This document shows positions 4,657 to 64,000 of a stretch of DNA of 64,000 nt, in pieces (the stretch's first letter is position 1; each line of letters starts with the position of its first letter). The translations under genes were made by a program, and so were the position numbers. The DNA comes from Candidatus Woesearchaeota archaeon (GTDB taxonomy: Archaea > Nanobdellota > Nanobdellia > SCGC-AAA011-G17 > JACPIM01): contig CAZELK010000006.1 in assembly GCA_964513145.1 (NCBI GenBank), positions 2,051 through 66,050 on the forward strand, given 5' to 3'. A model generated the notes under the pieces. The model was not told the origin of the DNA. It did not search any database and saw only the letters and a program-made list of their open reading frames with translations.

Positions 4657-4691
4657 AAATGACTTTTTATATTTTAAATATATAAATCTTT

Positions 4692-5054: not shown

Positions 5055-5254
5055 AAAATAACCAAATGCAATAGTTTTTTATATCTATCCCTTTAAATTA
5101 TTACAATTATTGTACCTTTCATTTCTTGGTGAATACTGCAATGATAATAATATTTTCCTAGCTTATAAAAATAGTTTAATATAAAAAAATAAGCAGTCTT
5201 AATTGATACAACTTAAACAAAGTTTTTTTATAGTGCTAATTTATACTTAATATT

Positions 5255-6266: not shown

Positions 6267-6349
6267 GCTAATCCGATTTATGGCTTATTTATATTATTTT
6301 CTGTTTAGGATAAGATTTTAATACCCCTTGCAATTAATTTAAAACTAAT

Positions 6350-7953: not shown

Positions 7954-9328
7954 TGCTAAAATAGGCTTAGAAATTCATTTGCAATTATATTTAAAGAGCA
8001 AGCTATTTTGCGGATGTTCGAGTGATTCCAGCAAACCCAATTCATCCTTATGTCCACTTTGTTTGGGACATCCTGGAAGCAAGCCAGTAATCAATAACAA
8101 AGCAATTGAATTAGGAATTAAATTGGGATTGGCTTTAAATTGTACAATAAATAAAGAAAATTACTTTTCAAGAAAAACTTATTTTTACCCAGACATGAGC
8201 AAAAATTATCAAATAACACAATATGAATATCCTTTATGCATAAATGGACATGTCAGATTTAAAGATAAAATAATCAGAATAAAGAGAATTCATTTGGAAG
8301 AGGATCCGGCTTCTATACAATATCCAAAAACTATTTCTGATTCTGAATATTGCTTAATTGATTATAACAGATCTGGGGTTGCTTTATGTGAAATTGTTAC
8401 AGAACCTGATTTAACTTCTGCTCAAGAAGCCAGGGAATTTCTAGAACAATTAGCAACTATAATTGATTACCTAGAAATTTATGACTCTAAAAAATTTACA
8501 ACAAGGGTTGATGCTAATGTTTCATTGCCAGGAACAAAAAGGGTTGAGATAAAAAATATTACTGGATTTAAAGCTGTAGAAAAGGCAATCGGGTTTGAAA
8601 TTTTAAGGCAGAAAGGCAAATTAAGAAGAAATGAAGAATTTAAACAAGAAACAATGCATTATGATTCTTTTAGCAATAAAGTAATCCCATTAAGAGAAAA
8701 AGAATTTGAAGAAGATTATGGATATATTTTTGATCCTGACTTGCCGAAGATTGTTGTTGAAGAAAAATTAATCAAAAAAATTAAAGAAACTATACCAGAA
8801 CTACCAACTGAGAAAATTGAAAGATTAATTGAAAAATATAAAATTAGTGCAAATACAGCCAGTATTCTGGCTTCTGAAAGAGAAATTTGCGACTTGTTCG
8901 AAGAAAGTGTTAAAAAAATTGACAAAGAACTAGCTATAAATTTTATTACAGTTACATTAAAGAAAGTCCTTAATTATAATAATTTGAAATTAAAAGACAG
9001 CAAATTGACTTTGGATAATTTTATTAATTTATTAAAATTAATTGGAAAAAAAGATTTAACATCAAGGATGGGTGATTTATTGCTGAGAAGACTTGTTTTG
9101 AGCAATAAAAATACTGATGAATTAATTAAAGAACTAGGTTTTAAAAAAATAGAGAATTTTGACAAGGCTGTTGATACTATATTGATCAAAAATAAAAAAT
9201 CTGTTGAAGATTATAAAATGGGAAATTCCAAGGCTTTACATTTCTTAATCGGACAAATTTTAAGGGAATTAAAAGACAAAGCAGACCCAAAAAGCATTGA
9301 GAAAAAAATATTAGAAAAAATAAAATAA
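7925..9328 (+). CDS. gatB: Asp/Glu-tRNA amidotransferase subunit B
   Basis: 467 aa. N-terminal GLEIHLQL...KLFCGC. GatB-type cradle (..DYNRSGVALCEIVTEPD..). C-terminal YqeY-like tail. The start could instead be the internal Met at 7937. Confidence 0.85.
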   Translation: MEIFMKESDNAKIGLEIHLQLYLKSKLFCGCSSDSSKPNSSLCPLCLGHPGSKPVINNKAIELGIKLGLALNCTINKENYFSRKTYFYPDMSKNYQITQYEYPLCINGHVRFKDKIIRIKRIHLEEDPASIQYPKTISDSEYCLIDYNRSGVALCEIVTEPDLTSAQEAREFLEQLATIIDYLEIYDSKKFTTRVDANVSLPGTKRVEIKNITGFKAVEKAIGFEILRQKGKLRRNEEFKQETMHYDSFSNKVIPLREKEFEEDYGYIFDPDLPKIVVEEKLIKKIKETIPELPTEKIERLIEKYKISANTASILASEREICDLFEESVKKIDKELAINFITVTLKKVLNYNNLKLKDSKLTLDNFINLLKLIGKKDLTSRMGDLLLRRLVLSNKNTDELIKELGFKKIENFDKAVDTILIKNKKSVEDYKMGNSKALHFLIGQILRELKDKADPKSIEKKILEKIK

Positions 9329-9331
9329 AAA

Positions 9332-9550
9332 TTACCTTCGTTTAGAAGGTTTTTCCATACCCATACATGCCTGACATTCTGGGCAGTGGCACATTGCTAC
9401 TGATCCGAATCCAATTAGCAAAAATAAAACTGACCACCACTGGATATTCCAAAAAGTCCATACATTAAGGTCTTTTAATAAAAATAAGACACCAACAACT
9501 AAAAATAGAACACCACATAGCTTTCTACATTTTTTACATCCCATCATCAT
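9332..9550 (-). CDS. small membrane protein with Cys cluster (72 aa), hypothetical
   Basis: Two TM helices plus the motif CHCPECQAC. Confidence 0.35.
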   Translation of the reverse strand: MMMGCKKCRKLCGVLFLVVGVLFLLKDLNVWTFWNIQWWSVLFLLIGFGSVAMCHCPECQACMGMEKPSKRR

Positions 9551-9568
9551 TTTACATATCCTCCTTTT

Positions 9569-10099
9569 TTAAATTATACTAGCTTTTTTTATTACTACAT
9601 CAGTTAAAGGTTTATCGCTTGTGTCTCTTTTTGCATTACTTATTTTGTCAACAACATCCATACCTTCAACTACTTTACCGAATACTGGATGTTTTGCATC
9701 TAAGAAATTATTATCAACTGTATTTATAAAAAATTGACTGCCACCAGTATTAGGACCTGCATTTGCCATTGATATAGTACCACGATTATTTTTATTATTT
9801 TTTGTAAATTCATCCTTTATTACATACCCTGGACCGCCTCTTCCTGTTCCAGTTGGATCACCGCCCTGAATCATGAAGTTCGGAATAACCCTATGAAAAA
9901 TAACTCCGTCATAGAATTTTGAATTAACTAATTTTTTGAAATTATCAGATGTAATTGGCATTGTATTTTCAAATAATTCTATCTTTATATTACCAACAGA
10001 TGTTTCCAATAATACTATGCTGTTCATTTTATTTTCTGTTTTAGGTGTACAACCAGTTATTAAAAATAACATTAATAAGATTACTACCTCTTTCCGCAT
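9569..10099 (-). CDS. Cyclophilin-type peptidyl-prolyl cis-trans isomerase, lipoprotein
   Basis: Cyclophilin motifs (FHRVIPNFMIQGGDP, GTISMANAGPNTGGSQFFI). The likely start is MRKEVVILLMLFLITGC (lipobox LITGC). The track ORF extends 37 codons further upstream to 10210. Confidence 0.8.
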   Translation of the reverse strand: MRKEVVILLMLFLITGCTPKTENKMNSIVLLETSVGNIKIELFENTMPITSDNFKKLVNSKFYDGVIFHRVIPNFMIQGGDPTGTGRGGPGYVIKDEFTKNNKNNRGTISMANAGPNTGGSQFFINTVDNNFLDAKHPVFGKVVEGMDVVDKISNAKRDTSDKPLTDVVIKKASII

Positions 10100-10175
10100 T
10101 TTACTTATAATACTTGTCATATTTATATAACTTTCTAAGTGATAAATTTTTAAATGTAAAATATGTCTTATTATC

Positions 10176-10457
10176 ATGGTTAGATATAAACAAAGATGCA
10201 TGCGCTGCAAAAATAATATGGTTATTGTAACCCAGAATACAAAATTTCCTTTGTGCTACGACTGCCAAAAAGACGAACTGCATAAAGATATAAAAGACCC
10301 CAAAATGAAAAAGATGTTTGAAATACCTGAGGACTTTTATAAAAATAATGCGTTTTTAAGATCAATAAAAATCAATTACATCAGATTTGGAAAATTATCA
10401 GACAAACAAATAGAATGGTTTAATAAAACTGTAGATGGATTGAAGAAAGATAAATAA
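10176..10457 (+). CDS. zinc-ribbon protein (CxxC...CxxC), hypothetical
   Basis: 93 aa with CMRC...CYDC. Confidence 0.4.
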   Translation: MVRYKQRCMRCKNNMVIVTQNTKFPLCYDCQKDELHKDIKDPKMKKMFEIPEDFYKNNAFLRSIKINYIRFGKLSDKQIEWFNKTVDGLKKDK

Positions 10458-10467
10458 TATTGAAACA

Positions 10468-11778
10468 TTACGGTGTTAATCTTTCTGGATCGCGGGGGAG
10501 CAATATTGCTTCACGTACATTTTCCAGATTTAACATTCTCTGGATTAACCTGTCAAAACCAATACCTGCTCCGCCATGAGGGGGAGTTCCGTATTTGAAA
10601 ATATTAGCATAAAAAGACATTTTATCTAGATCTATTCCCTTTTCTTTAGACTGCTCTTTTAAAATATTATAATTATTTTCTCTTTGTGAGCCTGAAGAAA
10701 TTTCTACACCTTTGTAAACTAAATCAAATGATTTTGTAACTTTTTTATTTAAACTTGAACGCATTTGATAAAATGGTTTTTTCTCCCAAGGATATAGTGT
10801 AATAAAAACCATATCTGAATCATATTTTTCTTTTATTATCTCGCCAATTAATTTTTCGCCCTCTGAATCTAAATCTTCATTTTCTTTTAATTTTTTTCCT
10901 TTTTTCTCTATTAGTTTTTTTGCTTCTTCCAATGTAATTCTTGGGACTTGTTTTGGAATATCAATTTTTACATTTAACAAATCTAATTCTTCTTTGCATT
11001 TTTCTTTTACACTTGCCAGAACAAATTTCATTAACTCCTCAAGAACATCCATAACGTCGTTTTCATCTTTAATAAAACCCATTTCAATATCTATACCAGT
11101 AAATTCTGTTAAATGCCTTGTTGTATGGGATTTTTCTGCCCTGAAAACTTCACCAATCTCATAGACCCTTTCCATGCCTGAAACTACGAACATCTGCTTG
11201 TAAACTTGCGGACTTTGTGTTAGGAATGCTTCTTTACCAAAATAATCAATACTAAATTGTTCAGCTCCAGATTCTACACCACCAGCTGTTATTTTTGGAG
11301 TATTAATAGAAATAAATCCTTTTTCCTCGAAAAAATTAGAAACTATATTGAAAACTTTTGATCTTACCTTGAATATTGCTGAAATTTGCGGTCTTCTTAT
11401 ATCCAAAAATCTATAGTCTAATCTTTTATCTATTAATGTTTTTGATTTCTCTGATGTGTCTATAGGCAGAGGAGTTAGTGATTCTGATAAAATTTTTAAA
11501 TCTTCAACTGAAATTTCATAACCTTTTTTTGCTTCTTTGCTTGTCTTTACCTTTCCTTCGATTTCAACAACAGATTCTATTGATATTTTGTGAATTTTAT
11601 TGAACAAATTTTCATTTATATTTTCTTTATGAGAAACACATTGAATTAAACCAGTTTTATCTCTTAATAAAATAAACTGGACTTTACCTAAAGACCTTAT
11701 TTCAGAAACCCATCCTTTTACAAGGACTTTTTTATCATTTAATTTTTCATTTATTTCCGATATAAAAATACGATCCAT
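10468..11778 (-). CDS. aspS: Aspartyl-tRNA synthetase, archaeal type
   Basis: 436 aa. Motifs are FRAEKSHTTRHLTEFTGIDIEMGF and GIGFDRLIQRM...LLPRDPERLTP. N-terminal OB fold. Confidence 0.9.
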   Translation of the reverse strand: MDRIFISEINEKLNDKKVLVKGWVSEIRSLGKVQFILLRDKTGLIQCVSHKENINENLFNKIHKISIESVVEIEGKVKTSKEAKKGYEISVEDLKILSESLTPLPIDTSEKSKTLIDKRLDYRFLDIRRPQISAIFKVRSKVFNIVSNFFEEKGFISINTPKITAGGVESGAEQFSIDYFGKEAFLTQSPQVYKQMFVVSGMERVYEIGEVFRAEKSHTTRHLTEFTGIDIEMGFIKDENDVMDVLEELMKFVLASVKEKCKEELDLLNVKIDIPKQVPRITLEEAKKLIEKKGKKLKENEDLDSEGEKLIGEIIKEKYDSDMVFITLYPWEKKPFYQMRSSLNKKVTKSFDLVYKGVEISSGSQRENNYNILKEQSKEKGIDLDKMSFYANIFKYGTPPHGGAGIGFDRLIQRMLNLENVREAILLPRDPERLTP

Positions 11779-52076: not shown

Positions 52077-52547
52077 ATGGACTTAAAAGAAGAGTATGAA
52101 AAATTAAGAAAAAATTACAAACTTCCCAGTTATGAAGATTTAGACAGAGAATTTGAACTGCTTTATGTTGCCAAATTAGAAGAAATAAAATTCCCATTAA
52201 GATTTATCAGGAGAAGAATTACAGATAAACTTAGCTGGTTTTGCAATATGATGCAAAATATAATACAGCCCAATCCAGGTTCTTTAATAAGTCTAGAAGA
52301 AAGCAAGTTTTTTTCAGACAATGACAGAGCAAAAATAATAAATCTACTAAAAGAATTAATGTATTTTGAAAGAGAGTCGCTTATTTTAGAAGTTTATTTT
52401 AATGAAAAAGATGATGTTGAATTTATAAATAATATCTTTGACATCTGGGACAAAACAAAAAAAGAAATTAAATTTATAACAGATATACTTAAAAAAGGCT
52501 GGAAAAAAGAAATGAAAAAAGAGGAAAAAGAACATTATTTTGGCTAA
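52077..52547 (+). CDS. hypothetical cytoplasmic protein (156 aa), first gene of the pilus locus
   Basis: ORF in the track. Lies 2 nt upstream of the first pilin-like gene. Confidence 0.5.
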   Translation: MDLKEEYEKLRKNYKLPSYEDLDREFELLYVAKLEEIKFPLRFIRRRITDKLSWFCNMMQNIIQPNPGSLISLEESKFFSDNDRAKIINLLKELMYFERESLILEVYFNEKDDVEFINNIFDIWDKTKKEIKFITDILKKGWKKEMKKEEKEHYFG

Positions 52548-52549
52548 AG

Positions 52550-53221
52550 ATGAATAAAAGAGGTCAGGTTTATATCTTATTTGCATTAGTTATAGCCTTA
52601 GTTGTTTTTGTTTTAACTAATAAATCAAACATAATCAATATTACTCCTAGTGACAGCGAGTTTAAGGAGATATCAGAAAATTATGAAACTGAAAGCAGCA
52701 ATCTTGTAAGTTCTTTAATAAAATTTAATAAACTTGATGAAGAAATATCAGAACAGTTTGCAACATTCAGCATTTTATTTACACAATATTCAAAAAGCAA
52801 AAATCCTTCTTTTGGACTGGTTTATTTTCTTAATCACAATAATGTTTTAAGAGTAGGAAATTTTTTAGATAAAAATATAAAAGTAACTGGCGGCAGTTCT
52901 GATATTAATCTTGAGGGCTGTTATTCCCTTGTTCCTGTTTTTATAAATTATAATACTTTTCAAATAAACAATTATATTGATTATGAAACATACAGGCGCA
53001 ATTCTATTACTTCCCCATGTGTTAATGAAATAACACCAGCGCCTGATCAAATAATTTTGAAAATAGGTGATGAAGAAATTGAATATGAAGTTAATATTAT
53101 ACCACAACAACCCAGGGTTGTAGTCATAAGCAGGGAAAACTTGTTTCAAGACAGAAAGGTTTTTTTAGATGATCAATTTGTAAAAGGAAAAAGACATAGG
53201 GATAATAGAGATGATGATTAA
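52550..53221 (+). CDS. class III signal peptide (archaeal type IV pilin-like) protein
   Basis: MNKRGQVYILFALVIALVVFVL: a K/R-G-Q cleavage motif followed by a hydrophobic helix. Confidence 0.55.
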   Translation: MNKRGQVYILFALVIALVVFVLTNKSNIINITPSDSEFKEISENYETESSNLVSSLIKFNKLDEEISEQFATFSILFTQYSKSKNPSFGLVYFLNHNNVLRVGNFLDKNIKVTGGSSDINLEGCYSLVPVFINYNTFQINNYIDYETYRRNSITSPCVNEITPAPDQIILKIGDEEIEYEVNIIPQQPRVVVISRENLFQDRKVFLDDQFVKGKRHRDNRDDD

Positions 53222-53657
53222 AAAAAAGGGACAGTCTGAATTTGTAGCATATGTTTTGCTGATAGGCATGGCTGTTGCACTAGCATCAATAATCGGAGTA
53301 TGGAGTTTTAATAATGCACAAAAAGTTAGTGATAATATAATAAAACAAAACAAAATAGAAGAAAAATGCGACCAATTAGCTATTAGCAGCAAAATTATTT
53401 GCCTTAATAATGCTGTAGATTCTATTAGTATTTCTAACACCGGCTATTTTACAATTGATGAAGTTAAAATAACTAATCCAGAAACTGGGCTGGAAAATTG
53501 CTTTAATAAAGTCACAAAAATAAAACCAGGAGAGTCCAGGATTACACAAACTTTAAATAATTGCGATACTGCCATATTATTGCCTTTAGTCAAGATTTCA
53601 GATGATGAGACAATAGGGTGCAGTGAAAAAAAATTGGTGTTGAAATTAATATGTTAA
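53211..53657 (+). CDS. class III signal peptide (archaeal type IV pilin-like) protein
   Basis: MMIKKKGQSEFVAYVLLIGMAVALASIIG: KKGQ|S, a classic prepilin peptidase site. Confidence 0.65.
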   Translation: MMIKKKGQSEFVAYVLLIGMAVALASIIGVWSFNNAQKVSDNIIKQNKIEEKCDQLAISSKIICLNNAVDSISISNTGYFTIDEVKITNPETGLENCFNKVTKIKPGESRITQTLNNCDTAILLPLVKISDDETIGCSEKKLVLKLIC

Positions 53658-54103
53658 AATTTAGAAAGAGGGGTATTTCGCCTTTAATTGCAACTGTGTT
53701 GCTGATCGGGTTTACTGTTGCTATTGCAGCAATAGTAATTTTCTGGAGCAGAAATTTTGTAAAAGAAAAGGCAGAAAAAGAAGGTGCTTTATCAGAAAAA
53801 AAATTAAAATGTGAAAATGTAGAAATTGACATTAAAAGCATTGATAAATTAAATAAAAATATTGTTATTGAAAATAAAGGCAATGAGGACATTGATGGAT
53901 TTATATTAAGAGTTGTTTCTGGTGGTGTTGGATCAGATAAAATTACATTAAAATTAGAAGCTTTAAAAACAGCAACAATTACATATTCTTTTGATTTGGA
54001 AACAAATTCAAAAATTGATTTGATACCAGCATTAAAACCAGAAGGAACAAATGCACCTTTGGTTCCTTGCTCAAATAAACATAAAGTTATAAAAACTGAA
54101 TAA
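53651..54103 (+). CDS. archaeal type IV pilin (Pilin_N / class III signal peptide)
   Basis: MLKFRKRGISPLIATVLLIGFTVAIAAIVIFW. Confidence 0.7.
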   Translation: MLKFRKRGISPLIATVLLIGFTVAIAAIVIFWSRNFVKEKAEKEGALSEKKLKCENVEIDIKSIDKLNKNIVIENKGNEDIDGFILRVVSGGVGSDKITLKLEALKTATITYSFDLETNSKIDLIPALKPEGTNAPLVPCSNKHKVIKTE

Positions 54104-54120
54104 ATTTTAAGGAGGTAAAA

Positions 54121-54579
54121 ATGAGATTTTTAAATAAAAAAGGTATTTCACCTTTAATTGCAACTGTATTATTAATAGGATTTACTGTTGCCTTGGCTGC
54201 AGTAGTCATTACATGGGGCAGCGGATTTGTAAACAGGGTTACAACTGGCACTGACCAAAGAACTTCAAAGGCTATCTCATGCACAGGTGATCTGGATTTT
54301 GAAATTACAAAAGTAACATGTCCAGACACAATACTTGTCAATAACAAAGGCAATTTAGCTATTGAAAGCTTAAATTTAAGATTTTTTGATGAAAATGGAA
54401 ATCTAGCTGGAGTTCCTGCAACAACAGCGCCAATAGAAAAATATGAATTGAAATCAATTACACAAGCTATACCAGTTGGAACAACAAAAGTAGAGGCAAT
54501 TGCAACAGTTATAATTGACGGACAAGAAGCAGTATGCAGTGAAGCAGCAAAACAAAGAACATTTAGCCCAGCCTGCTAA
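54121..54579 (+). CDS. archaeal type IV pilin (class III signal peptide), paralog
   Basis: MRFLNKKGISPLIATVLLIGFTVALAAVVITWGSGFV. Conserved Cys at ~55 and at the C-terminus (..FSPAC). Strong SD aaggaggt 5 nt upstream. Confidence 0.75.
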   Translation: MRFLNKKGISPLIATVLLIGFTVALAAVVITWGSGFVNRVTTGTDQRTSKAISCTGDLDFEITKVTCPDTILVNNKGNLAIESLNLRFFDENGNLAGVPATTAPIEKYELKSITQAIPVGTTKVEAIATVIIDGQEAVCSEAAKQRTFSPAC

Positions 54580-54649
54580 ATTTTTTTCTTTTTTTATTAT
54601 TTATGAGTTAATATACTTCTTTATATAATTGAATTAATTTTATTTTTTT

Positions 54650-55111
54650 ATGGGGTTTTTAAATAAAAAAGGTATTTCACCTTTAATTGCAACTGTATTA
54701 TTAATAGGATTTACTGTTGCCTTGGCTGCAGTAGTCATTACATGGGGCAGCGGGTTTGTACAAAGAATTACAACTGGGACTGAAGACAGAACAACAAGAA
54801 CTGTAACTTGCACTAGTGATGTAAACTTTGAAATTACAAAAGTTGACTGTAATACAAAAGCAGTTACAATAACAAATACTGGTGATTTTCCTATCCTTGG
54901 ATTTACATTTAGATTTTTTAATAGTGGAGGCGATTATTTGGGAATGACAAATGGTGATGGAGCAAATAAATTTGAGGTTAAAATTATTAATCTTCAAAAT
55001 ATCCCTTCTACAACCAGCAAAGTAGAAGCTTTATCAACAATAATACTTGAAGGTCAGAATGTTACATGCAAAGATATAATCAAAGAAAAAATATTTAGTC
55101 CAGCTTGTTAA
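54650..55111 (+). CDS. archaeal type IV pilin (class III signal peptide), paralog
   Basis: N-terminal ~105 nt are identical to 54121..54579 bar one mismatch. C-terminal ..FSPAC. Confidence 0.75.
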   Translation: MGFLNKKGISPLIATVLLIGFTVALAAVVITWGSGFVQRITTGTEDRTTRTVTCTSDVNFEITKVDCNTKAVTITNTGDFPILGFTFRFFNSGGDYLGMTNGDGANKFEVKIINLQNIPSTTSKVEALSTIILEGQNVTCKDIIKEKIFSPAC

Positions 55112-55143
55112 TTCTGGTAGCTTAATGAATTAAAGGATTCTCG

Positions 55144-55716
55144 TCAAATCAACTTTTTAACTTTAACTCTTATTTTTTCCGGATATCTTTTCAAATAAGT
55201 TTCTAATCTTTTAAAATTTATTTTCTTTTTTATTTCTCTTAATAATTGTTTATCAATTGACTGATTAAAAACCACCATGTCAATAAATGTTTTTTCAATA
55301 TCTGAGTACGGAAAGTAAAAACTACCCTCTTTTAAAAGCTCAAAACCAAAAAAATACTTTTTATTAATATTTCTTATCAAAACATTTGTCCCCAAAAATT
55401 CTCTAATTCCCCTTCTAACTTTTTTTGTAGTTAAAATTACAGGTATTGTTTCCTGCTCCCATAAACCATAAAAACTTAAGGCGGTTTGCAATCCTAAATA
55501 AGCTGGTTTAAATGCAAAAACAGGAAGAGAACTTTCGTCATATTTTGTATAAAATCCCTTACCAACTTTTTTTACTTTATTTTTCTTTAAAAGATTTGAA
55601 ATTAATAATTTTGCATAGTTATTCTTTCCAATTATTCTCTCAATAGATTTAAAGTCTACTACTGGACTTCTTTCAAATAATCTCTCTATTTTTTTTAAAT
55701 GTATTTGTTTTCCCAT
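55144..55716 (-). CDS. AbiEi-like (type IV TA antitoxin-like) wHTH protein
   Basis: 190 aa. N-terminal ..LLKKNKVKKVGKGFYTKYD.. resembles the AbiEi_4 domain (L..G.l.rv.rGvY). Overlaps the upstream gene by 22 nt. Confidence 0.45.
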   Translation of the reverse strand: MGKQIHLKKIERLFERSPVVDFKSIERIIGKNNYAKLLISNLLKKNKVKKVGKGFYTKYDESSLPVFAFKPAYLGLQTALSFYGLWEQETIPVILTTKKVRRGIREFLGTNVLIRNINKKYFFGFELLKEGSFYFPYSDIEKTFIDMVVFNQSIDKQLLREIKKKINFKRLETYLKRYPEKIRVKVKKLI

Positions 55717-56174
55717 TTCTTTTTTATATAATCAAACATTTCGTCAGAAGAAGGAATAATTCCTTCAGTAATTATGGCTTTTAAATTACTTTCATCAATT
55801 GGTTTTTTATAATATTTAATTAGTTTTTCAATATCTTTATTGTGAATTTTAGAATTTTTCAACAAGAAGAAAATATCCCATAAATCCCTGACTTTAAATC
55901 TTTTTAGATAAGTATTAATTTTTTCAATTAAAAAATCTTCAATTGTCAGACTATAAATCGAGATTAAAGTCCCATCAGACATTTCATAATCACAAATTAC
56001 GCCTGAAATCTTTTGAAAGGTCGCTTCCAATCTAACAGAAGTTCTATCAAATTCCAGTTCAGAATAAATGCTATTTTCTGATATCTTTTTCTTCTTAATT
56101 TGAAATCCTATCTTTTTTAAATTTTCAAATAATAACTCAATTTTTGAATTATCGTTTGGAAAATAAAAATCCAA
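55695..56174 (-). CDS. AbiEii-like nucleotidyltransferase-fold protein (short)
   Basis: 159 aa. C-terminal VRDLWDIFFLL matches the AbiEii (DUF1814) RDlYDl..L motif. The N-terminal NTase motifs are degenerate or truncated. Confidence 0.4.
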   Translation of the reverse strand: MDFYFPNDNSKIELLFENLKKIGFQIKKKKISENSIYSELEFDRTSVRLEATFQKISGVICDYEMSDGTLISIYSLTIEDFLIEKINTYLKRFKVRDLWDIFFLLKNSKIHNKDIEKLIKYYKKPIDESNLKAIITEGIIPSSDEMFDYIKKKWENKYI

Positions 56175-56425
56175 ATCTTCAGAAAATCTTTTTCCCTGAT
56201 AACATCTCCATATCCCTGTTCCCCCATAAAACTGCTTTTTTTAAATAGAATAAACTTCCTGAACAATTAAATCCTGGGCATAAGCTATTTTTTTGTGAGT
56301 TTCCCTGTTCAATCTTATCTGCAAAGGTAATTTTTCCATATTATTAACAAAAGTTATATATCTATATATCTTTCTGTTAATATAATAAATAACTAAAAAA
56401 CTTTCTATTTTATATTATTTATTGT

Positions 56426-56546
56426 ATATTTACTCATTATTAATGAATTATAGATACGATTAATATGGTAAACCTTCCTACTATTCACTATCCTAATGAA
56501 ACTCCCACATAAATAGTGAATAATACCTCATATTTTCTATTGAGAA
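56426..56546 (+). repeat. direct repeat copy A (~121 bp core, diverged extension to ~56610)
   Basis: atatttactcattattaatgaattata...ttcactatc...aataatac[ct]tcatattttctatt[t]gagaa. About 85% identical to 59265..59386. Confidence 0.7.
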
Positions 56547-56640
56547 GTTTGCAAAATAGTTAATTTAGATTTGTCACTTATACAAAAAGCTTTCTAATAT
56601 TAATAGTAAACTTTATAAGTAAGCTTTCTATTTATATTAT

Positions 56641-57927
56641 ATGGATTTTAAAAGTATAATTAAAGAACAAAGAGAAGAACTCGAAAAAATAGAAAGAGAA
56701 GAAAAAATAATAGAAAGAACTAATTTAGAAGAGTCTAAAATAGCATTAAAATACCCAAATATACTTGCTATTTTAGGTATTAGAAGGTGCGGTAAGTCAA
56801 TTTTTTCATATTTATTGGCAAAACCACATAAATTTGCATACATTAATTTTGATGACGAAAGGCTAGCTGGATTGAAAAGTGGGGACTTGAACAAGATTTT
56901 AGAATCTTTTTATGAAATTTATGGAGATATAGAATTTATAATTTTAGATGAAATACAAAATATAGATAACTGGGAACTATTTGTCAATAGATTAAGAAGA
57001 ACAAAAAAAATAATCTTAACAGGAAGCAATTCTAAACTTTTATCAGGGGAATTATCAACTCATTTAACTGGAAGATACTTAAATAAATTATTGTTTCCAT
57101 TTTCTTTTAAAGAACTATTAAAATTGAAAGATTTTAAAGAAAATAATGTTTATACAACACAAGAAAAAGCAAAAATTATGGGACTTTTGCAAGAATATCT
57201 TGAACTGGGTGGATTCCCGGAAGCATATAAATTTGGAAGAGGAATAATTTTAAGAATTTATGAAGATATATTAACAAAGGATATTTTATTAAGACACAAT
57301 ATAACCAAGAGAGAAGAAATAAAAAAATTAGCTAAATACTTAATAACAAATTCTTCTGGAGAAATAACTTATAGCAAATTAGCAAAAATATTTAATATTA
57401 AACATGTTTCAACAATATCTAACTGGATTTCGTTTCTCGAAAATGCTTTTTTGATTTTTAGATTGGAAAGATTTGACTTTAAGTTAAAACAGCAATTTAT
57501 AGCTCCAAAGAAAGTATATTGTATTGATTCCGGACTTGTTAATTCAATAGGGTTTCAATTCTCAGAAAATAAGGGAGAAATTATTGAAAATGAAGCTGCA
57601 TTAGAATTACAGAGAAGAAAAGCTATAGATAAATCTCTTGAAGTTTATTATTGGAAAAACCATCAGCAGAATGAAGTAGATTTTGTTCTAAAAAGAGACA
57701 AAAAAATAGAAAGTTTAATTCAAGTCAGCTATATAAACTCAAAAGAAGAAATAAAAGAAAGAGAAATTAATTCTTTAATAAAAGCAAGCAAAGAGCTAAA
57801 ATGTAAAAATCTTGTTGTTATAACCTGGGATTATGAATCAGAAGAAAAGTTTTATGGAGAAGAGATTAAATTTGTTCCATTATGGAATTGGCTGCTTGGA
57901 TATAAAGAACATATTAAAATAAACTAA
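56641..57927 (+). CDS. AAA+ ATPase, AAA_14/DUF4143 family
   Basis: 428 aa. Walker A GIRRCGKS, Walker B IILDEIQ, DUF4143-like C-terminal half. Confidence 0.8.
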   Translation: MDFKSIIKEQREELEKIEREEKIIERTNLEESKIALKYPNILAILGIRRCGKSIFSYLLAKPHKFAYINFDDERLAGLKSGDLNKILESFYEIYGDIEFIILDEIQNIDNWELFVNRLRRTKKIILTGSNSKLLSGELSTHLTGRYLNKLLFPFSFKELLKLKDFKENNVYTTQEKAKIMGLLQEYLELGGFPEAYKFGRGIILRIYEDILTKDILLRHNITKREEIKKLAKYLITNSSGEITYSKLAKIFNIKHVSTISNWISFLENAFLIFRLERFDFKLKQQFIAPKKVYCIDSGLVNSIGFQFSENKGEIIENEAALELQRRKAIDKSLEVYYWKNHQQNEVDFVLKRDKKIESLIQVSYINSKEEIKEREINSLIKASKELKCKNLVVITWDYESEEKFYGEEIKFVPLWNWLLGYKEHIKIN

Positions 57928-57998
57928 GTCATCATTTATTGTTATCACTATTGATTTAAGACAATAATTTATATAGAGAAATTTATATAAAATTATAG

Positions 57999-58505
57999 AT
58001 GAGATTTTTAAATAAGAGGGGTATTTCTCCTTTAATTGCAACTGTATTATTAATTGGGTTTACTGTTGCCTTGGCTGCAGTAGTTATTACTTGGGGCAGC
58101 GGGTTTGTTAACAAGGTTACTTCAACTACAGAAGAAAGCACATTAAAAACAATTTCCTGCACTACTGATGTAAGTTTTGAAATTACAAAAGTAACATGTG
58201 ATACTGAACCTGGAAATCCAGATCCAAGCACAATAACTGTAGATAATCGCGGTAGTTTAGATATTGAAGGTCTAATTTTAAGATTTTATGATATTAATGG
58301 AGAGGTTTCTGGAGAAGCAACCAATACTGAACCCATTGGTAAATTCGAAGTTAAAACTATTTTGTTATATCCTGACACAATTCCGCAAGAAAAAATACCA
58401 ACTGAGACAACTAAAGTAGAGGCAATTGCAGTAGTCAAATATAATGATCAAAATTTAACTTGTGGTGGGAATGCAAGACAGAAATCATTTACTCCTTCCT
58501 GTTAA
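57999..58505 (+). CDS. archaeal type IV pilin (class III signal peptide), paralog
   Basis: MRFLNKRGISPLIATVLLIGFTVALAAVVITWGSGFV. C-terminal ..FTPSC. Confidence 0.75.
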   Translation: MRFLNKRGISPLIATVLLIGFTVALAAVVITWGSGFVNKVTSTTEESTLKTISCTTDVSFEITKVTCDTEPGNPDPSTITVDNRGSLDIEGLILRFYDINGEVSGEATNTEPIGKFEVKTILLYPDTIPQEKIPTETTKVEAIAVVKYNDQNLTCGGNARQKSFTPSC

Positions 58506-58512
58506 TTCTTAC

Positions 58513-59094
58513 ATGAAAAAAGGCCAGATATGGACATCAGCAGTTTTGTATATAGTTATAGGAGTAATTACAATATCAATTATTTTAAGTGCTGGGGTAC
58601 CTTTAGTAAATAAATTAAAAGATAAAAATACAATAATCCAAACAAAAGAATTAATGCTGGACTTGGATAAAGTAATTAGGGAAGTTAGAAATGAGGGGCC
58701 TGGTTCGAAAAGGGTTATACAGCCTTTTGTTATAAAGGATGGAAATTTTTTTATTAATACAACAAATAATGAAAATAAAATACAATGGATATTGAAAACT
58801 AGTGCTGTATTTGTTGAACCTTGTGGAAAAACAAAAGCAGACTGCTTAAGCAATAATTTAATTATTAAAGAGGGGCCTTTAAGTATTTATGACACTGATA
58901 CTATTGTTGAAGATGAATATATTATTAATTTGGAATTAGACTATGCTGGCGTTGGTTTTTTGAAAATGAAAGAGGGTCTTGGCAAAGATGCGCCTTTGCT
59001 AGGGAGATTTTCTTTTATAATTGAAAATTCTGGTGCTGATATTACAAGAAGTCCACCAACGAACCTGCCTGATTTGGATATTACAGTAAATTGA
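58513..59094 (+). CDS. class III signal peptide (pilin-like) protein
   Basis: MKKGQIWTSAVLYIVIGVITISIIL. The track ORF (58462) extends upstream into the preceding gene. Confidence 0.6.
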   Translation: MKKGQIWTSAVLYIVIGVITISIILSAGVPLVNKLKDKNTIIQTKELMLDLDKVIREVRNEGPGSKRVIQPFVIKDGNFFINTTNNENKIQWILKTSAVFVEPCGKTKADCLSNNLIIKEGPLSIYDTDTIVEDEYIINLELDYAGVGFLKMKEGLGKDAPLLGRFSFIIENSGADITRSPPTNLPDLDITVN

Positions 59095-59567: not shown

Positions 59568-60815
59568 ATGAAATTAGAAAATACATTAACTATTTTTTGT
59601 ATTTCCCTTTTGGGTTTTTTATTGTTATTAGTTAATTTTTATACTGTTAAATATAATGAAGACATTACTGGACAAATTGTATTAAGTGATTTTGCCTTGT
59701 TTGGTGCTGCTGCTTCTGGTGATAAAAATGCATGCAATGCCATTGCAAGCACTTATGCAGGAAATTTGGATGTTTTACCAAAATCAGTTTTAGATGCATG
59801 CAGATTTCCAAAGACTCCTTCTTTTTCTACACAAGTTGATAATTTAAACTTGGAACAATTAGATACAAATCTGAAAAATGTAGACAATTCTATTGCACAA
59901 TTAGATTTATTAGGATCTGCCATGAGCAACAGTATACCTAGTCTAAAAGAAGAAAAAACTACTTTAGAAGGTGAATTTATTTCTCTTAAAACTGAGATCC
60001 CTAAGTTAGCAACTACTATTTCTGAATTTGATACAAAACTTAGAAAAGTTAATTCAGATTTAAGCAAAGCAAAAAGTAAACCCTGCAAAATATTTCAAAC
60101 CAGCTGCAAGACTTTAAAGAACCAAGAAGTTTCTAAATTTAAATCTGAAGCTGATTTATTAAATAAAGACAAATCTTCTGCAGTAAGGAATAGCAAAGGA
60201 AAAACAGTTTTATTAAATAATAAAAGAGCTAAATTAAGTGATTTATCTTCCCAAATACAATTAGCTGAACAAGTTAAAGCTAATATTGGAAATAAGAAAA
60301 ATGAATTAAATAAGTTAAAGAATGACATTACTAATAAAATAAGTGAATTGGAAAAAGAAATTTTAGATGAAACAATTCGTGTTGAAGATGAGGATGATAT
60401 ATCAAATGCAGAAGTATCCAAAACTAGTAAAGTCTGCCATTGCACTCTGCGAGAGATAACAGAGGTAGAATGCAAGAAGAAAGGAATTCCTATTCAAACT
60501 GGTCCTGAAACTATTACTCCTTGGGAAGAAGGTGTTGCAAGTGGCGGTACTTGGAAAGTTTATCTTGATCGGGGTTTTGGTATGTCTGCAACAAAGTGCA
60601 CGCGTGATTTGATTTATCCAGATGGTGCCTGTAATTCTGATGCGGACTGCATAGAGGGCTGTGCCTTTAAAATGCAGGATCAAGGGTCGACGGCGAGACT
60701 TGATTGCTTGGATACAGTGGAAAGAATTTGTGCAAAGAGAGGAGGGACAACGAATAAACTTTACTGGCCTGTTCGAAAGGAAGGTATTTGTTTGGATGTA
60801 GTTAGCGCTCCTTGA
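59568..60815 (+). CDS. membrane-anchored coiled-coil protein with Cys-rich C-terminal domain (candidate surface/adhesin protein)
   Basis: 415 aa. N-terminal signal anchor. ~250 aa Lys/Asn/Leu-rich coiled coil. C-terminal ~130 aa with 14 Cys (CHC...ECKKKG...CTRD...CNSDADCIEGC...). The C-terminus is encoded by GC-rich DNA. Confidence 0.6.
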   Translation: MKLENTLTIFCISLLGFLLLLVNFYTVKYNEDITGQIVLSDFALFGAAASGDKNACNAIASTYAGNLDVLPKSVLDACRFPKTPSFSTQVDNLNLEQLDTNLKNVDNSIAQLDLLGSAMSNSIPSLKEEKTTLEGEFISLKTEIPKLATTISEFDTKLRKVNSDLSKAKSKPCKIFQTSCKTLKNQEVSKFKSEADLLNKDKSSAVRNSKGKTVLLNNKRAKLSDLSSQIQLAEQVKANIGNKKNELNKLKNDITNKISELEKEILDETIRVEDEDDISNAEVSKTSKVCHCTLREITEVECKKKGIPIQTGPETITPWEEGVASGGTWKVYLDRGFGMSATKCTRDLIYPDGACNSDADCIEGCAFKMQDQGSTARLDCLDTVERICAKRGGTTNKLYWPVRKEGICLDVVSAP

Positions 60816-61059: not shown

Positions 61060-64000
61060 ATGTTAGGTCAAAATAAAGAGGTTATAGAGTTCAAGCCGAT
61101 TTTTTACATAAATCCAAGACCAGAGATAGCTGAATTACCTGATGTAAAAGAAAAGCAAAAAATAGATGTGAGATATGTTTTATTAGAACCTTATGTAAAT
61201 GCACATATTTTCTGGGACAAAGAAAACAATGAACTTGTATATTATGTTGAAGAACCACAATTAGATGAAAAAGAATTAAATGTCCTGAATATTTTAGAAA
61301 ATGGGATAAATGAATTAATAAACATCAGCTTTATTGCAATGAAAAATACTGATGTTGTAGTTGAATATTTAGAAAAAAACATAAGGGTTTTATTAAATGA
61401 ATTGAAAATAAGCATTTCCAAAGAATCTTATTTAAAATTAATGTATTATATTTACAGAGATTTTGTTGGACTAAATGAAATTGAGCCTTTGCTAAAGGAT
61501 TATTATATTGAAGATATTGAATGCAATGGTGTTAATACTCCAATTTACATTGTCCATAGAAAATACAGGAATTTAAGAACAAATATTATTTTTAAAGATG
61601 CAAAAGAATTAACTAGTTTTGTAGAAAAATTAGCACAAAAATGCGGGAAATATATATCTTATGCTTCCCCTTTATTAGACGCAAGTTTGCCAGATGGGTC
61701 GCGTATTCAAGCAACATTCACGCAAGATATTTCTTCAAGAGGACCAAGTTTTTGCTTTGCTGACGGATATTTACAATTAAATAATGGCGAGGTTGTGAAA
61801 ATAAATAAATTATTTGAAAAATGTAAAAATGACTTTGGTTCAAGTTTTGATAAAGAAAATGAAATTGTTAATGTAACTAATGTTGGTGTTTGCGGAGTTG
61901 ATGAAAATAATTTAAAACAAATTGATTCTAAACTAAAAACTATAATAAAATTGAAACCACCTGAAGAATTAGTAAATATTGGATTTGATGATGGTTCAGA
62001 AATAATCACAACTACAAACCACTTATTTCATGTGGTGGATAATGATTTAAGCCTTTTAGAAGCACATAAATTAAAAACCGGGTTGTTTGTACCTATGCCT
62101 TCTAAAGTAGATGTAGAGGGTTGCATGCAATCTATCAACATAGTCAATTTAATAAAGGAATTTTCTTATTTATATAAAGTCTGTCTAGTTTCAAACCAAG
62201 AAATTAAAAACATAGTTTCCAACAATATTGATTTTTATAAAAATAAAAGCAGAGATTATAGAATACAAATGGCTCAGGACTATACAGTACATAATTCTTA
62301 TTTCTATGAGATTCTTTCAAGAGGAAGCTCAATTTCTTTTGAAGTTCTTAATGAAATATGTGATCTTAATTCTCTGGATGAAATCAATTTAGTTGTTTAT
62401 GGCGGTCCTGTTAAAAAAGAAAGAAAATCTATAAATGTACCAAAAATTTTAGATGAGGAATTAGCTTATCTGGCTGGTGCTATAATTAGTGATGGTCATC
62501 TCAGTAAATATAGTATTGATATTGCTTGTTATAATACTGGATTTACAAATGCGGTTACTACCAGACTAAAAAATAAATTTGGGAAATTTAATGTCTATTA
62601 TAATGGTACCAGAGTTTATTTGTGCAATCTATTTGTGCCTTTTTTCTTCAATAAAATATTTGGCATACCTTATGGAAGGAAAGCAAAAATTGTAAATATT
62701 CCGGAGATAATATTTAAATCAGATAATAAAATAATTGCCGCTTTTTTAAAAGGTTTATTTGACGGTGATGGGACATGCAAATCTGGAATAAGCTATAAAA
62801 CAAGCTCCAAAGAACTTGCAGAACAATTAACTTATTTATTAGCCAGATTAGGGTTATATTCCAAAATTATACTTAAAAAGAATATGTATAGAGTTCTTAT
62901 ACCGTCAATTTATGAAAATATTTATTCTGAAAAAATTAATTTTTGTGATACTTTTAAAATTAAATGTTTGAGCGAGTTACTTTTGAAGAAAGGAAATAAT
63001 GCCAAATCTTATATTAGACATGGCAGAGTCCCTGCAAAACCCATCCTGAACTTAATGAAAGATGTGGGTTTATCTAAAAATAAAGCAAGTAAATTATGTA
63101 AAGTGAGCTATAACAGATTAGTACATTATGACTCCTTGTCAAAACCTTTTGTTAAACAAATAATTAGTTTAATAGAATTGGAAATAGAAAACAAGGGGAT
63201 AAAAAACTGCAAATTAGACTACATAAAATGGTTAGTTGGATGTGAACAAGAATTTGTTAAAATTAAACATGTAAAAATCTTTGAAAATAAAAATAAAATA
63301 CCAGTTTATGATATAGAATTAGAACCTTGTAAATTCTTTATAGCTGGAAACAAACCAATGAATATTTTTGATACAGTTAGAAAATTTACAAAAGACCCAT
63401 GGACCCCAGTTAAATTAATGCAATTTAAAACAGTTTCACCAGAAATTTTGGCTTATCTCTGGCTGTTAATAGAAAATGAAGCAAATATAATGATAATCGG
63501 CGGAACTGGTTCTGGAAAAACTTCTTTTCTGAACTCGATTGCTTTTTTTATTCCGCCAGCAGCAAGGGTTGTTTCAATTGAGGATAGTGTCACTGGAGAC
63601 TCCGAGATTATATATAAAAATAAAGATAAAATTGAAAAATTAACAATAGGTAAATTAACAAAATTAGTAAATAGTAAAAAAATTAATTTAGAAAACATTG
63701 AAATTTTGACAGTAGATGATGACTGGAAAGTCAGATTTGGAAAACCCAGCAAATTTATAAAACATTCAACAAATAAAGATATATTCAAAATTACAACTTC
63801 GACTGGCAGAATAATAGAGGTAACAAAAGATCATTCTTTGTTTACACTAACCACTTCCGGATTAGTTGAAGTAAAACCAGAGAATTTAGAAGAAAATGTA
63901 TCCTGTATTGCTGTTCCCAGAGTTCTGCCTATAGAAGGAAAAGGTTTTTTTGATATTAATTTAATTAATCATTTAAATTATTTTAATGAAGATTTTTTAA
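61060..64000 (+). CDS. FlaI/GspE-family type IV pilus/archaellum assembly ATPase, interrupted by two inteins; 3' end outside the window
   Basis: Extein ...SRIQATFTQDISSRGPSF | TVRKFTKDPWTPVKLMQ...IMIIGGTGSGKTSFLNSIAFFIPPAARVVSIED | ... aligns to FlaI (..SRRGTSFTIRKF.., Walker A, ..ISIEDT..). The ORF stays open to the window end. Confidence 0.8.
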   Translation, partial: MLGQNKEVIEFKPIFYINPRPEIAELPDVKEKQKIDVRYVLLEPYVNAHIFWDKENNELVYYVEEPQLDEKELNVLNILENGINELINISFIAMKNTDVVVEYLEKNIRVLLNELKISISKESYLKLMYYIYRDFVGLNEIEPLLKDYYIEDIECNGVNTPIYIVHRKYRNLRTNIIFKDAKELTSFVEKLAQKCGKYISYASPLLDASLPDGSRIQATFTQDISSRGPSFCFADGYLQLNNGEVVKINKLFEKCKNDFGSSFDKENEIVNVTNVGVCGVDENNLKQIDSKLKTIIKLKPPEELVNIGFDDGSEIITTTNHLFHVVDNDLSLLEAHKLKTGLFVPMPSKVDVEGCMQSINIVNLIKEFSYLYKVCLVSNQEIKNIVSNNIDFYKNKSRDYRIQMAQDYTVHNSYFYEILSRGSSISFEVLNEICDLNSLDEINLVVYGGPVKKERKSINVPKILDEELAYLAGAIISDGHLSKYSIDIACYNTGFTNAVTTRLKNKFGKFNVYYNGTRVYLCNLFVPFFFNKIFGIPYGRKAKIVNIPEIIFKSDNKIIAAFLKGLFDGDGTCKSGISYKTSSKELAEQLTYLLARLGLYSKIILKKNMYRVLIPSIYENIYSEKINFCDTFKIKCLSELLLKKGNNAKSYIRHGRVPAKPILNLMKDVGLSKNKASKLCKVSYNRLVHYDSLSKPFVKQIISLIELEIENKGIKNCKLDYIKWLVGCEQEFVKIKHVKIFENKNKIPVYDIELEPCKFFIAGNKPMNIFDTVRKFTKDPWTPVKLMQFKTVSPEILAYLWLLIENEANIMIIGGTGSGKTSFLNSIAFFIPPAARVVSIEDSVTGDSEIIYKNKDKIEKLTIGKLTKLVNSKKINLENIEILTVDDDWKVRFGKPSKFIKHSTNKDIFKITTSTGRIIEVTKDHSLFTLTTSGLVEVKPENLEENVSCIAVPRVLPIEGKGFFDINLINHLNYFNEDFL
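61753..63372 (+). mobile_element. Intein 1 (540 aa) with LAGLIDADG homing-endonuclease domain
   Basis: Starts CFADGY (block A). Block B TTTNHLFHV. Two LAGLIDADG motifs (LAYLAGAIISDGH, IAAFLKGLFDGDG). C-terminal block VYDIELEPCKFFIAGNKPMNIFD followed by +1 Thr; the last residue appears to be Asp rather than Asn. Confidence 0.75.
63586..64000 (+). mobile_element. Intein 2 (partial), inserted at the conserved IED|T site
   Basis: Begins SVTGDSEII (Ser1 block A). Block B TKDHSLF. Continues past the window end. Confidence 0.55.

Follow-up and report, generated by a model that had tools for sequence, protein, structure and literature searches.

The locus and its pilus-operon context

The window, that is, the whole stretch of 64,000 nucleotides that was analysed, contains a type IV pilus operon of a Woesearchaeota-like DPANN archaeon, in which three ORFs stand between pilin genes. 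All three were found where the original prediction had placed them, with the 22-nt overlap of the two minus-strand ORFs (55695-55716), and the peptides VGKGFYTKYD and VRDLWDIFFLL were both recovered in the translated ORFs. The features of the region and the evidence used to define them are the following (the ATPase gene is divergent to the AbiE cassette).

52077..55111, plus strand: upstream part of the pilus operon, with ORFs of 156, 223, 148, 150, 152 and 153 aa (TIGR02537, synteny with relatives L038 and L040)
55112..57998, no strand: inserted segment of ~2.9 kb between the second and third paralogous pilin genes (synteny)
55144..55716, minus strand: intact AbiEi antitoxin gene, 190 aa (PADLOC AbiEi PDLC02267, homologs, fold match)
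55695..56339, minus strand: disrupted abiEii toxin gene of 214 codons, a DUF1814/COG2253 nucleotidyltransferase (translation, Pfam AbiEii, homologs)
55695..56174, minus strand: "159-aa NTase" ORF, the 3' remnant of abiEii from a TTG codon (Leu56) (translation, alignment)
56220..56246, minus strand, approximate boundaries: lesion stretch (DNA alignments with the closest intact relative)
56343..56380, minus strand, approximate boundaries: promoter/operator element of the AbiE cassette (conserved in relatives)
56641..57927, plus strand: intact stand-alone AAA_14/DUF4143 ATPase gene, 428 aa, PDC-S01 candidate type (Pfam and PADLOC)
57999..59094, plus strand: downstream part of the pilus operon, with a 168-aa pilin paralog and a 210-aa pilin-like protein (profile searches, synteny)

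Five ORFs (starting at 53211, 53651, 54121, 54650 and 57999) scored above the cut-off of TIGR02537, Pfam Pilin_N fell just under its cut-off for the flanking pilins, and the last four upstream ORFs (148, 150, 152 and 153 aa) have an archaeal class III signal peptide/pilin N-terminus. A family of 206-nt repeats with copies at 54116, 54645 and 57994 corresponds to the 5' ends of pilin genes. In four relatives (L038 and L040 to L042; ~60-63% identical in a marker protein) the same operon is found gene by gene, lacking the insertion and with 15-90 nt separating the pilin genes.

By synteny, the segment 55112-57998 is thus a lineage-specific insertion in the operon, because in the related operons these pilin genes adjoin one another; the earlier description of a segment interrupting a pilin array agrees with this contiguity in relatives lacking it. 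Loss of the segment by the synteny relatives would be a less parsimonious explanation. G+C content is 0.25-0.26 across the three island genes versus 0.295-0.32 in the pilin flanks. The search for terminal repeats or a target duplication around the island returned just the repeats of the pilin paralogs and chance matches in AT-rich sequence, and no integrase marks an insertion route.

Toxin, antitoxin and promoter of the AbiE cassette

The assignment of the minus-strand pair to AbiEi and AbiEii, proposed from the sequence alone, was upheld by profile searches and by fold matches. The 190-aa protein matched 16 PADLOC AbiEi models (best PDLC02267, E=9e-18, residues 15-179), and 22 PADLOC AbiEii models matched the toxin (best 6e-15). 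With Pfam the outcome was divided: AbiEii, like the AAA_14 and DUF4143 models of the ATPase, scored above its cut-off (PF08843, 49.8 bits against a cut-off of 22.5, E=5.5e-13, for the 214-codon read-through protein), but AbiEi_4 remained below it on the 190-aa protein (15.7 bits, cut-off 25). None of the three island proteins matched an NCBIfam model.

For AbiEi, 1463 homologs of 190-204 aa were collected, which bear the JGI name "predicted transcriptional regulator of viral defense system". PDB sequence searches with the single sequence and with a profile gave nothing useful. The AlphaFold model is of low quality (pLDDT 62, with residues 61-137 under 50), since the alignment lacked diversity, and it was used solely for the Foldseek comparison, where the low-confidence model had AbiEi 6Y8Q as its sole significant PDB fold match (E=6e-4). 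An H-S-H-H-S-S topology was predicted for residues 2-57. AbiEi deviates at none of the 56 columns conserved at ≥95%, and its dN/dS relative to the relative L001 is 0.11.

The 159-aa ORF was rejected as a gene of its own: its TTG "start" is Leu56 inside the catalytic EDLDF motif, and the frame is open further upstream. What had been called an unusually short NTase is therefore a piece of a broken 214-codon gene and no compact toxin. The abiEii frame runs upstream to an ATG at 56339-56337, with a TAA at codon 33 (56243-56241) as its sole break, upstream of the catalytic GGT...RFSEDLD motif. DNA alignments with the closest intact relative show that one nucleotide has been lost from a T run and two more 21 nt beyond it, so that the codons between the two deletions, including the TAA, are out of frame, and the frame is restored downstream. 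Also considered was a frameshift within the A-run that precedes the TTG; it was ruled out, the upstream part being in the same frame with one TAA. Identical lesions were found in the Logan assemblies of two runs (SRR12113424 and SRR12113420). By comparison, abiEii is intact in 32 of 32 complete relatives from the genome collection, the gene of the 33rd being cut by a contig end.

Among 749 AbiEii homologs, the best 120 (51-88% identical) are 210-239 aa long, with the one exception of P0051, which is the 159-aa version of this same gene. G39, G40, R51, S53, D55, D57, K140, R147 and RDLWD are conserved in the alignment, and the catalytic residues G39, G40, R51, S53, D55, D57, K140, R147 and D152/D155 are still encoded in the window. 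Intact relatives have the motifs hG[GS]...R-x-[ST]-x-D-h-D (I/II), K...R (III) and D (IV) in a translatable ORF; this does not hold for the window copy, where motifs I/II lie between the TAA and the first possible start, Leu56. The 159-aa remnant lacks motif I (GG), R51, S53 and D55, and by itself scores 24.7 bits with Pfam AbiEii (cut-off 22.5). In the AbiEii of Streptococcus agalactiae, mutation of G49, R63 or D67 abolishes toxicity (PMC3985639), and the equivalents of these residues fall outside the remnant; T65 is the neutralising phosphosite (bioRxiv 10.64898/2026.01.19.700257). The intact homolog P0001 (88% identical) was modelled (pLDDT 82) with a DNA polymerase beta-like NTase fold similar to those of the solved DUF1814 toxins, and its top PDB matches were JHP933 4o8s (3e-6), 4ok0, MenT4 6y56 (2e-5) and MenT1 8an4 (1e-4); the AbiEii profile also matches 4o8s, 4ok0 and 6y56 by sequence.

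As no start is available between the TAA and Leu56, abiEii is, as far as its reading frame indicates, dead in this genome. The window toxin departs from 5 of 91 conserved columns, three of them in the frameshifted stretch and two (R16K, N124T) common to the intact P0001, and dN/dS is 0.11-0.13 for both AbiE genes. Because the remaining toxin gene still looks selected, its inactivation is dated as recent by its sequence. A low-frequency intact abiEii allele may exist, since the two runs probably sample the same community. No AbiEii relative was found in the scan of viral contigs, and carriage by known viruses is without evidence.

A 37-nt consensus (TTAACGAAAGATATATAAATrTATAACyTTTGTwrAT) was found in 31 of 31 relatives, the flanking DNA being unalignable. 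It consists of a BRE/TATA promoter within an imperfect palindrome and ends 3 nt before the toxin ATG, pointing to a leaderless mRNA. Base composition makes the TATA-rich core of the palindrome self-complementary, and the informative part of the palindrome is the outer arms AACGAAAG/CTTTTGTT. The window copy carries two mutations absent from the relatives, a 1-nt insertion (AAC[A]GAAAG) and an A-to-G change in the TATA box, which are present in both Logan contigs too. The window has one such element, that of the cassette itself, against 0 expected by chance.

The toxin-first order had been pointed out as an inversion of the canonical arrangement; this is correct, but it is not special to the locus, being invariant in 33 of 33 species-level loci of the DPANN clade and found also in an Omnitrophota relative (L036). 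The two genes form an adjacent co-oriented pair in 33 of 33 archaeal relatives and one bacterial relative, with an overlap of 19-22 nt in most clade loci (22 nt in the window). No recurrent neighbour surrounds the cassette, which occurs in 33 other genomic contexts, and within 6 kb of 34 AbiE loci there is neither a PDC-S01 ATPase nor a window-type pilin. The literature search returned no explicit description of a toxin-first DPANN clade, one paper's wording on the typical order being ambiguous; the enrichment of AbiE and PDC systems in DPANN archaea has already been published (PMC12988326).

The closest characterised systems are AbiE of Lactococcus lactis and S. agalactiae and MenAT3/MenAT4 of Mycobacterium tuberculosis, which combine a COG5340 antitoxin with a COG2253/DUF1814 NTase toxin (classed as type IV and lately moved to type VII). 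Shared with them are an overlapping two-gene operon, an inverted repeat at the promoter, a toxin matching Pfam AbiEii with the motifs GG...R-x-S/T-x-D-x-D, K...R and RDLWD, the predicted fold of the intact homolog (JHP933, MenT4, MenT1), and a partner of ~190 aa with a wHTH and a C-terminal domain that matches AbiEi HMMs and 6Y8Q. The DPANN clade differs in its toxin-first order (AbiE, MenAT3/4 and the archaeal PygAT of Pyrococcus yayanosii are antitoxin-first), in its shorter toxin (~217 aa versus ~250-300 aa) and in its archaeal, mostly leaderless BRE/TATA promoter; a nonsense-disrupted toxin together with a mutated promoter/operator is proper to the window copy.

The AAA_14/DUF4143 ATPase

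The identification of the third ORF as a DUF4143 AAA ATPase was correct. Its protein scored above the Pfam cut-offs for AAA_14 (3e-32, 111.7 bits) and DUF4143 (9e-25, 87.7 bits), with a weak Mrr_cat match in its C-terminal region (0.011), and matched PADLOC PDC-S01 (PDLC04787, E=4.5e-103) on profile positions 8-408 of 412. PDC-S01 is described as an ATPase fused to a PD-(D/E)xK nuclease-like domain (PMC12988326). The ATPase resembles this COG1373-type, single-gene phage-defence candidate by its full-length HMM match, its AAA_14 and DUF4143 domains, its stand-alone organisation, its weak Mrr-like nuclease signal and its abundance in archaea; no notable difference was seen, the family itself being a candidate by sequence (PMC12988326). 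There are 136 metagenome relatives, up to 88% identical, and dN/dS is 0.08. The protein is probably an NTP-driven nucleic-acid sensor/effector, and a defence candidate.

Among 45 loci at least 50% identical there is no conserved neighbour, the largest cluster (4 loci) being paralogous ATPases. The ATPase had been grouped with the AbiE pair in the original prediction; judging from gene neighbourhoods it is not a partner of the pair, because an AbiE-like gene lies within 6 kb in 3 of 80 ATPase loci and the ATPase in 0 of 34 AbiE loci. The suggested link of the islet to pili as virus receptors is likewise not borne out, since no window-type pilin stands beside either cassette elsewhere (none among the 80 ATPase loci). 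An unrelated pilin-like ORF adjoins the ATPase in three distant loci.

Interpretation of the insertion

The reading retained (probability of about 0.8) is that of a lineage-specific insertion with two independent, horizontally mobile defence-type cassettes, an AbiE cassette whose toxin is dead and an intact PDC-S01 ATPase. In intact members of this DPANN-specific clade, a DUF1814 toxin AbiEii of ~217 aa is encoded first and an AbiEi of ~195 aa next, and the operon is driven by the conserved, mostly leaderless BRE/TATA promoter within the palindrome. If the clade works like its homologs, AbiE of S. agalactiae and MenAT of M. tuberculosis, the toxin would add nucleotides to tRNA 3' ends and thereby block translation, and AbiEi would neutralise it by inducing autophosphorylation of the serine in R-F-S53-E-D-L-D (PMC3985639; bioRxiv 10.64898/2026.01.19.700257; PMC11375011). 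AbiEi may also bind the palindrome and repress the promoter, an autorepression proposed by analogy. Abortive-infection activity is likely absent from the window copy, and with its toxin disrupted the AbiE part is most likely no working defence system. What is left is at most an orphan AbiEi; speculatively, it could act in repression or give immunity to AbiE cassettes that arrive anew.

A functional islet, with a compact 159-aa toxin in inverted order that cooperates with the ATPase among pilins acting as virus receptors, would fit the correct family assignments, the position within the pilin array and the reported enrichment of AbiE and PDC systems in DPANN archaea (PMC12988326), but is very unlikely: the 159-aa ORF lacks G39/G40, R51, S53 and D55, intact homologs (best 120 of 749) are all 210-239 aa long, the abiEii frame continues upstream through a single TAA, and in no relative is the pair tied to the ATPase or to window-type pilins. 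That the pair might instead be a conserved pilus-biogenesis or regulatory component, as its place in the operon and the DNA-binding wHTH of AbiEi (which could in principle regulate neighbours) might suggest, has hardly any probability left, given that it is absent from the syntenic pilus operons of relatives, that in the 33 other contexts where it occurs neither a recurrent neighbour nor a window-type pilin accompanies it, that both proteins match AbiE models, and that the operator-like element occurs once in the window, at the cassette's promoter.

More weight, though still a small one, is given to the stop being a sequencing or assembly artefact, or being read through or recoded, so that a full-length toxin and a functional cassette would result. 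One of the deletions is in a T homopolymer, the deletions total 3 nt and keep the downstream frame, and the rest of abiEii shows no decay. Against an artefact, the NCBI assembly is identical to independent Logan assemblies of two runs, and the second lesion is a 2-nt deletion outside a homopolymer; against recoding, the standard code gives long, normally terminated ORFs elsewhere in the window, so that TAA is not reassigned; against read-through, A36, L37 and H38 beside the GG motif (≥95% conserved) would still be replaced. A functional cassette is further opposed by the two additional unique lesions of its promoter. Somewhat less improbable, but doubtful, is that the DPANN AbiE clade represents a distinct AbiE regulatory design in which the retained AbiEi perhaps has a function of its own. 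Here the order is toxin-first, the 22-nt dual-coding overlap would suggest translational coupling, the leaderless promoter would lie within a palindromic operator better conserved than the proteins, and an AbiEi kept perfectly conserved after the death of the toxin could confer "anti-addiction" immunity to the many related AbiE cassettes circulating in DPANN communities, or regulate host genes.

Under the retained reading of two independent cassettes, the proposed defence islet is real, with defence families on an inserted segment, but it is an ordinary one with a dead AbiE toxin. The finding is useful chiefly as a correction: what looks like a "short, inverted" AbiE is one copy, broken not long ago, of a cassette that is very common in DPANN archaea, and HMM surveys of the PADLOC type would still count this copy as a system. 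The widespread DPANN AbiE clade to which it belongs is uniformly toxin-first and has a strikingly conserved 37-nt promoter/palindrome. Toxin-antitoxin loci are expected to decay toxin first, since earlier loss of the antitoxin would be lethal. Like decayed toxin-antitoxin loci and orphan antitoxins, the locus has an inactivated toxin and an intact antitoxin; it departs from the usual decay by paired compensating deletions that keep the downstream frame and by its promoter/operator mutations. It illustrates this expected order in a natural setting, the toxin having been lost first and the antitoxin kept.

Insertion in a type IV pilus operon

The three ORFs of the original prediction were recovered at its coordinates, together with the 22-nt overlap of the two minus-strand ORFs (190 and 159 aa) and the peptides quoted from them.

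ORFs of the inserted segment (island, 55112-57998)
55144-55716, minus strand, AbiEi antitoxin ORF, 190 aa
55695-56174, minus strand, remnant nucleotidyltransferase ORF, 159 aa, TTG start
56641-57927, plus strand, ATPase ORF, 428 aa

Five ORFs flanking the island scored above cut-off for TIGR02537 (archaellin/type IV pilin N-terminal domain); three of these five are paralogs (starts at 54121, 54650 and 57999), and their 5' ends form a 206-nt repeat family. Window-wide G+C is 0.29; the pilin genes stand at 0.295-0.32 and the three island genes at 0.25-0.26. Syntenic operons were reached in L038, a Woesearchaeota MAG, and on three groundwater scaffolds (L040-L042) by following homologs of the 210-aa pilin-like protein encoded downstream; their order is 156 aa, 227 aa, four or five pilins of ~150 aa, ~195 aa, T2SSE ATPase and two T2SSF genes. 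The window matches these operons gene by gene (44-78% identity); their pilin genes are spaced by 15-90 nt and the insertion is absent. The proposed insertion among pilins was thus borne out by these relatives, and the segment holding the AbiE pair and the ATPase is, on this comparison, an insertion in the pilus operon. Terminal repeats were searched for around the island and none was found.

A second variable spot in the operon follows the last pilin-like gene and precedes the T2SSE ATPase; here the window encodes (59568-60815, plus strand) a protein of 415 aa that has a membrane segment at its N-terminus, a Cys-rich C-terminus and a long coiled coil. L038 has nothing at this position and L040 has two unrelated-looking minus-strand genes, one of them 28% identical to the 415-aa protein over 286 aligned positions. 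Downstream of the pilins, the T2SSE-family ATPase for pilus assembly is rich in inteins (Intein_splicing and LAGLIDADG_3), and since counts differ between loci, the intein load varies between related DPANN genomes.

Intein-bearing T2SSE ATPases
Window, 61060-64000, runs off the end
L037 (this organism), 4548-10583, 2011 aa, at least three intein hits
L038, 10665-13739, 1024 aa, one intein hit
L040, 13322-18697, 1791 aa, two intein hits

The Rfam tRNA match at 3188-3241 (plus strand) is weak and short, with 30.2 bits (gathering score 29) over 54 nt and model positions 4-67. ARAGORN does not call it, and it may represent a fragment or half of a tRNA, or a chance hit.

Identity and linkage of the island genes

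The minus-strand pair is AbiE. In PADLOC, the 190-aa protein hits AbiEi models (9e-18, residues 15-179); AbiEii models are hit (6e-15) by the read-through protein, the 214-codon abiEii translated through its TAA. The ATPase contains AAA_14 (3e-32) and DUF4143 (9e-25) domains, and its residues 335-398 give a weak Mrr-like signal. The predicted families were therefore recovered, and among the HMMs suggested for checking them DUF1814 (Pfam AbiEii), AAA_14 and DUF4143 matched, but the Pfam AbiEi_4 score of the 190-aa protein fell under threshold. Structure prediction agreed for the antitoxin through a poor model (pLDDT 62), whose sole significant PDB match is AbiEi 6Y8Q, and for the nucleotidyltransferase through P0001, the closest intact toxin homolog (pLDDT 82, confident), whose top PDB matches are the DUF1814 nucleotidyltransferases JHP933, MenT4 and MenT1.

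The ATPase gene is intact (dN/dS 0.08 versus an 87%-identical relative) and its product matches PADLOC type PDC-S01 over its full length (4.5e-103). PDC-S01, an archaea-enriched ATPase fused to a PD-(D/E)xK domain, was the fourth commonest defence or defence-candidate system of prokaryotes in a 2026 survey; DPANN archaea are enriched in AbiE and PDCs, most of the latter still unvalidated (PMC12988326).

Neither a link between the AbiE pair and the ATPase nor a link to pili, both proposed initially, was supported. Within 6 kb of 34 AbiE loci there was no ATPase, no window-type pilin and no recurrent neighbour; among 80 loci with ATPase relatives (up to 88% identical), an AbiE-like gene was nearby in just 3, a window-type pilin in 0, and no neighbour recurred beyond 4 loci. 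None of the viral contigs scanned carries the toxin family.

The sole other locus with both cassette types neighbouring is L053 (5220-5648 and 10540-11744). The ATPase relative there (85% identical) is immediately preceded by a distant AbiEii-like gene and followed, 3.3 kb downstream on the opposite strand, by an AbiE pair of the same clade. At the more distant loci L073, L075 and L076 (ATPases 55-57% identical), the ATPase has directly upstream an ORF whose N-terminus is of the archaeal class III signal peptide/pilin-like type (e.g. L073 5071-5538), probably by coincidence, such genes being numerous in DPANN genomes. At L001 (8041-12286), the closest intact AbiE cassette lies within a dense toxin-antitoxin island with a PIN and two MNT/Polbeta genes, one of them paired with HEPN, and a Polbeta/DUF6932 pair is found just upstream of the pilus operons of L040-L042 (5435-6512); small TA cassettes seem to build up in the surroundings of these loci.

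Disruption of the abiEii toxin gene

The 159-aa ORF, originally described as an unusually short nucleotidyltransferase, corresponds to the 3' part of a gene broken by a TAA. Upstream of its TTG, which is Leu56 within the catalytic EDLDF motif, the frame is unbroken to an ATG at 56339 except for this one codon (translation MEKLPLQIRLNRETHKKIAYAQDLIVQEVYSI*KKQFYGGTGIWRCYQGKRFSEDLDFYF...), and Pfam AbiEii scores 49.8 bits (E=5.5e-13) on the read-through protein versus 24.7 bits on the remnant. A database search returned 749 toxin homologs, of which the best 120 are 51-88% identical and 210-239 aa long, except P0051, the 159-aa version of the window's own gene. The homologs come from MAGs of Woesearchaeota, Pacearchaeota and Nanoarchaeota, and NCBI lists some as AbiEii/AbiGii family toxin. 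Judging from its DNA, the toxin gene of the window is broken, not a short nucleotidyltransferase.

In a DNA alignment with P0001 (88% identical, loci L001/L002), the window gene lacks one base in a T run (TATTTTAAAC to TA-TTTAAAA) and, 21 nt on, two bases (TTTTACATGG to TTTT--ATGG); the codons in between, the TAA among them, are out of frame. An assembly artefact is unlikely as the source of these lesions, because the Logan assemblies of SRR12113424 and SRR12113420 carry the identical sequence. Among 33 archaeal species-representative genomes with the toxin locus, recovered using the family alignment, the complete ORFs are intact in 32/32 (213-220 codons by homolog alignment) and the 33rd ends at a contig edge. 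No ATG, GTG or TTG is present between the TAA and Leu56, so any product would lack G39/G40, R51, S53 and D55. In S. agalactiae AbiEii, toxicity needs G49, R63 and D67, equivalents of clade residues absent from the remnant (PMC3985639), and T65, the S53 equivalent, is the neutralising phosphosite (bioRxiv 10.64898/2026.01.19.700257).

Columns at least 95% conserved (91 toxin, 56 antitoxin) point to a recent inactivation of the toxin and an intact antitoxin. The window toxin deviates at 5 of its columns (average 1.05, maximum 4 in 115 homologs), three being the frameshifted stretch itself and two (R16K, N124T) being common to intact P0001 (toxin alignment A1), and the antitoxin at 0; pairwise dN/dS versus L001 is 0.11-0.13 and 0.11, respectively.

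Gene order and promoter element of the clade

The inverted gene order had been taken as an oddity of the locus. It is instead a clade-level variant, since in 33/33 archaeal loci the toxin is followed directly, on its own strand, by an AbiEi homolog (190-203 aa), usually with a 22-nt overlap as in the window, whereas in characterised AbiE, MenAT3/4 and Pyrococcus PygAT the antitoxin comes first; one distant Omnitrophota relative is also toxin-first. The locus is a decayed example of already known kinds, and its two seemingly unusual features come down to a disrupted toxin gene and a clade-wide gene order.

A 37-nt element (TTAACGAAAGATATATAAATrTATAACyTTTGTwrAT) precedes the toxin ATG in 31/31 relatives. 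Its distance from the ATG is 3-11 nt in 24 loci, 18 of them with exactly 3 nt, and 20-28 nt in the remaining 7; DNA farther upstream is unalignable. The element can be read as a BRE/TATA box placed ~25 nt before the ATG, which would imply leaderless transcripts. An imperfect palindrome encloses the BRE/TATA (AACGAAAGATATAT opposite ATATAACTTTTGTT, reverse complement of the latter AACAAAAGTTATAT) and, since AbiEi autoregulation works through inverted repeats (PMC3985639, PMC7319586), we infer by analogy a putative AbiEi operator. Unique to the window copy are one extra nucleotide in the left arm (AAC[A]GAAAG) and a G in place of an A in the TATA box; the Logan contigs carry both, and no second such element occurs within the window.

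The putative operator is located at L003-L035 (just upstream of abiEii starts) and at window 56343-56380, and its conservation exceeds that of the proteins it would control (50-88% identity). The same operator accompanies a complete DPANN-type AbiE cassette (toxin 62% identical) on a contig labelled uncultured Methanosarcinales archaeon (L026, CAYSCV010000023.1), either by horizontal transfer or because the contig was binned wrongly.

The clade architecture (toxin first, dual-coding overlap, presumed leaderless palindromic promoter) is the sole part of the locus possibly worth follow-up, and the 37-nt element looks like a ready-made candidate operator for tests of archaeal AbiEi autoregulation.
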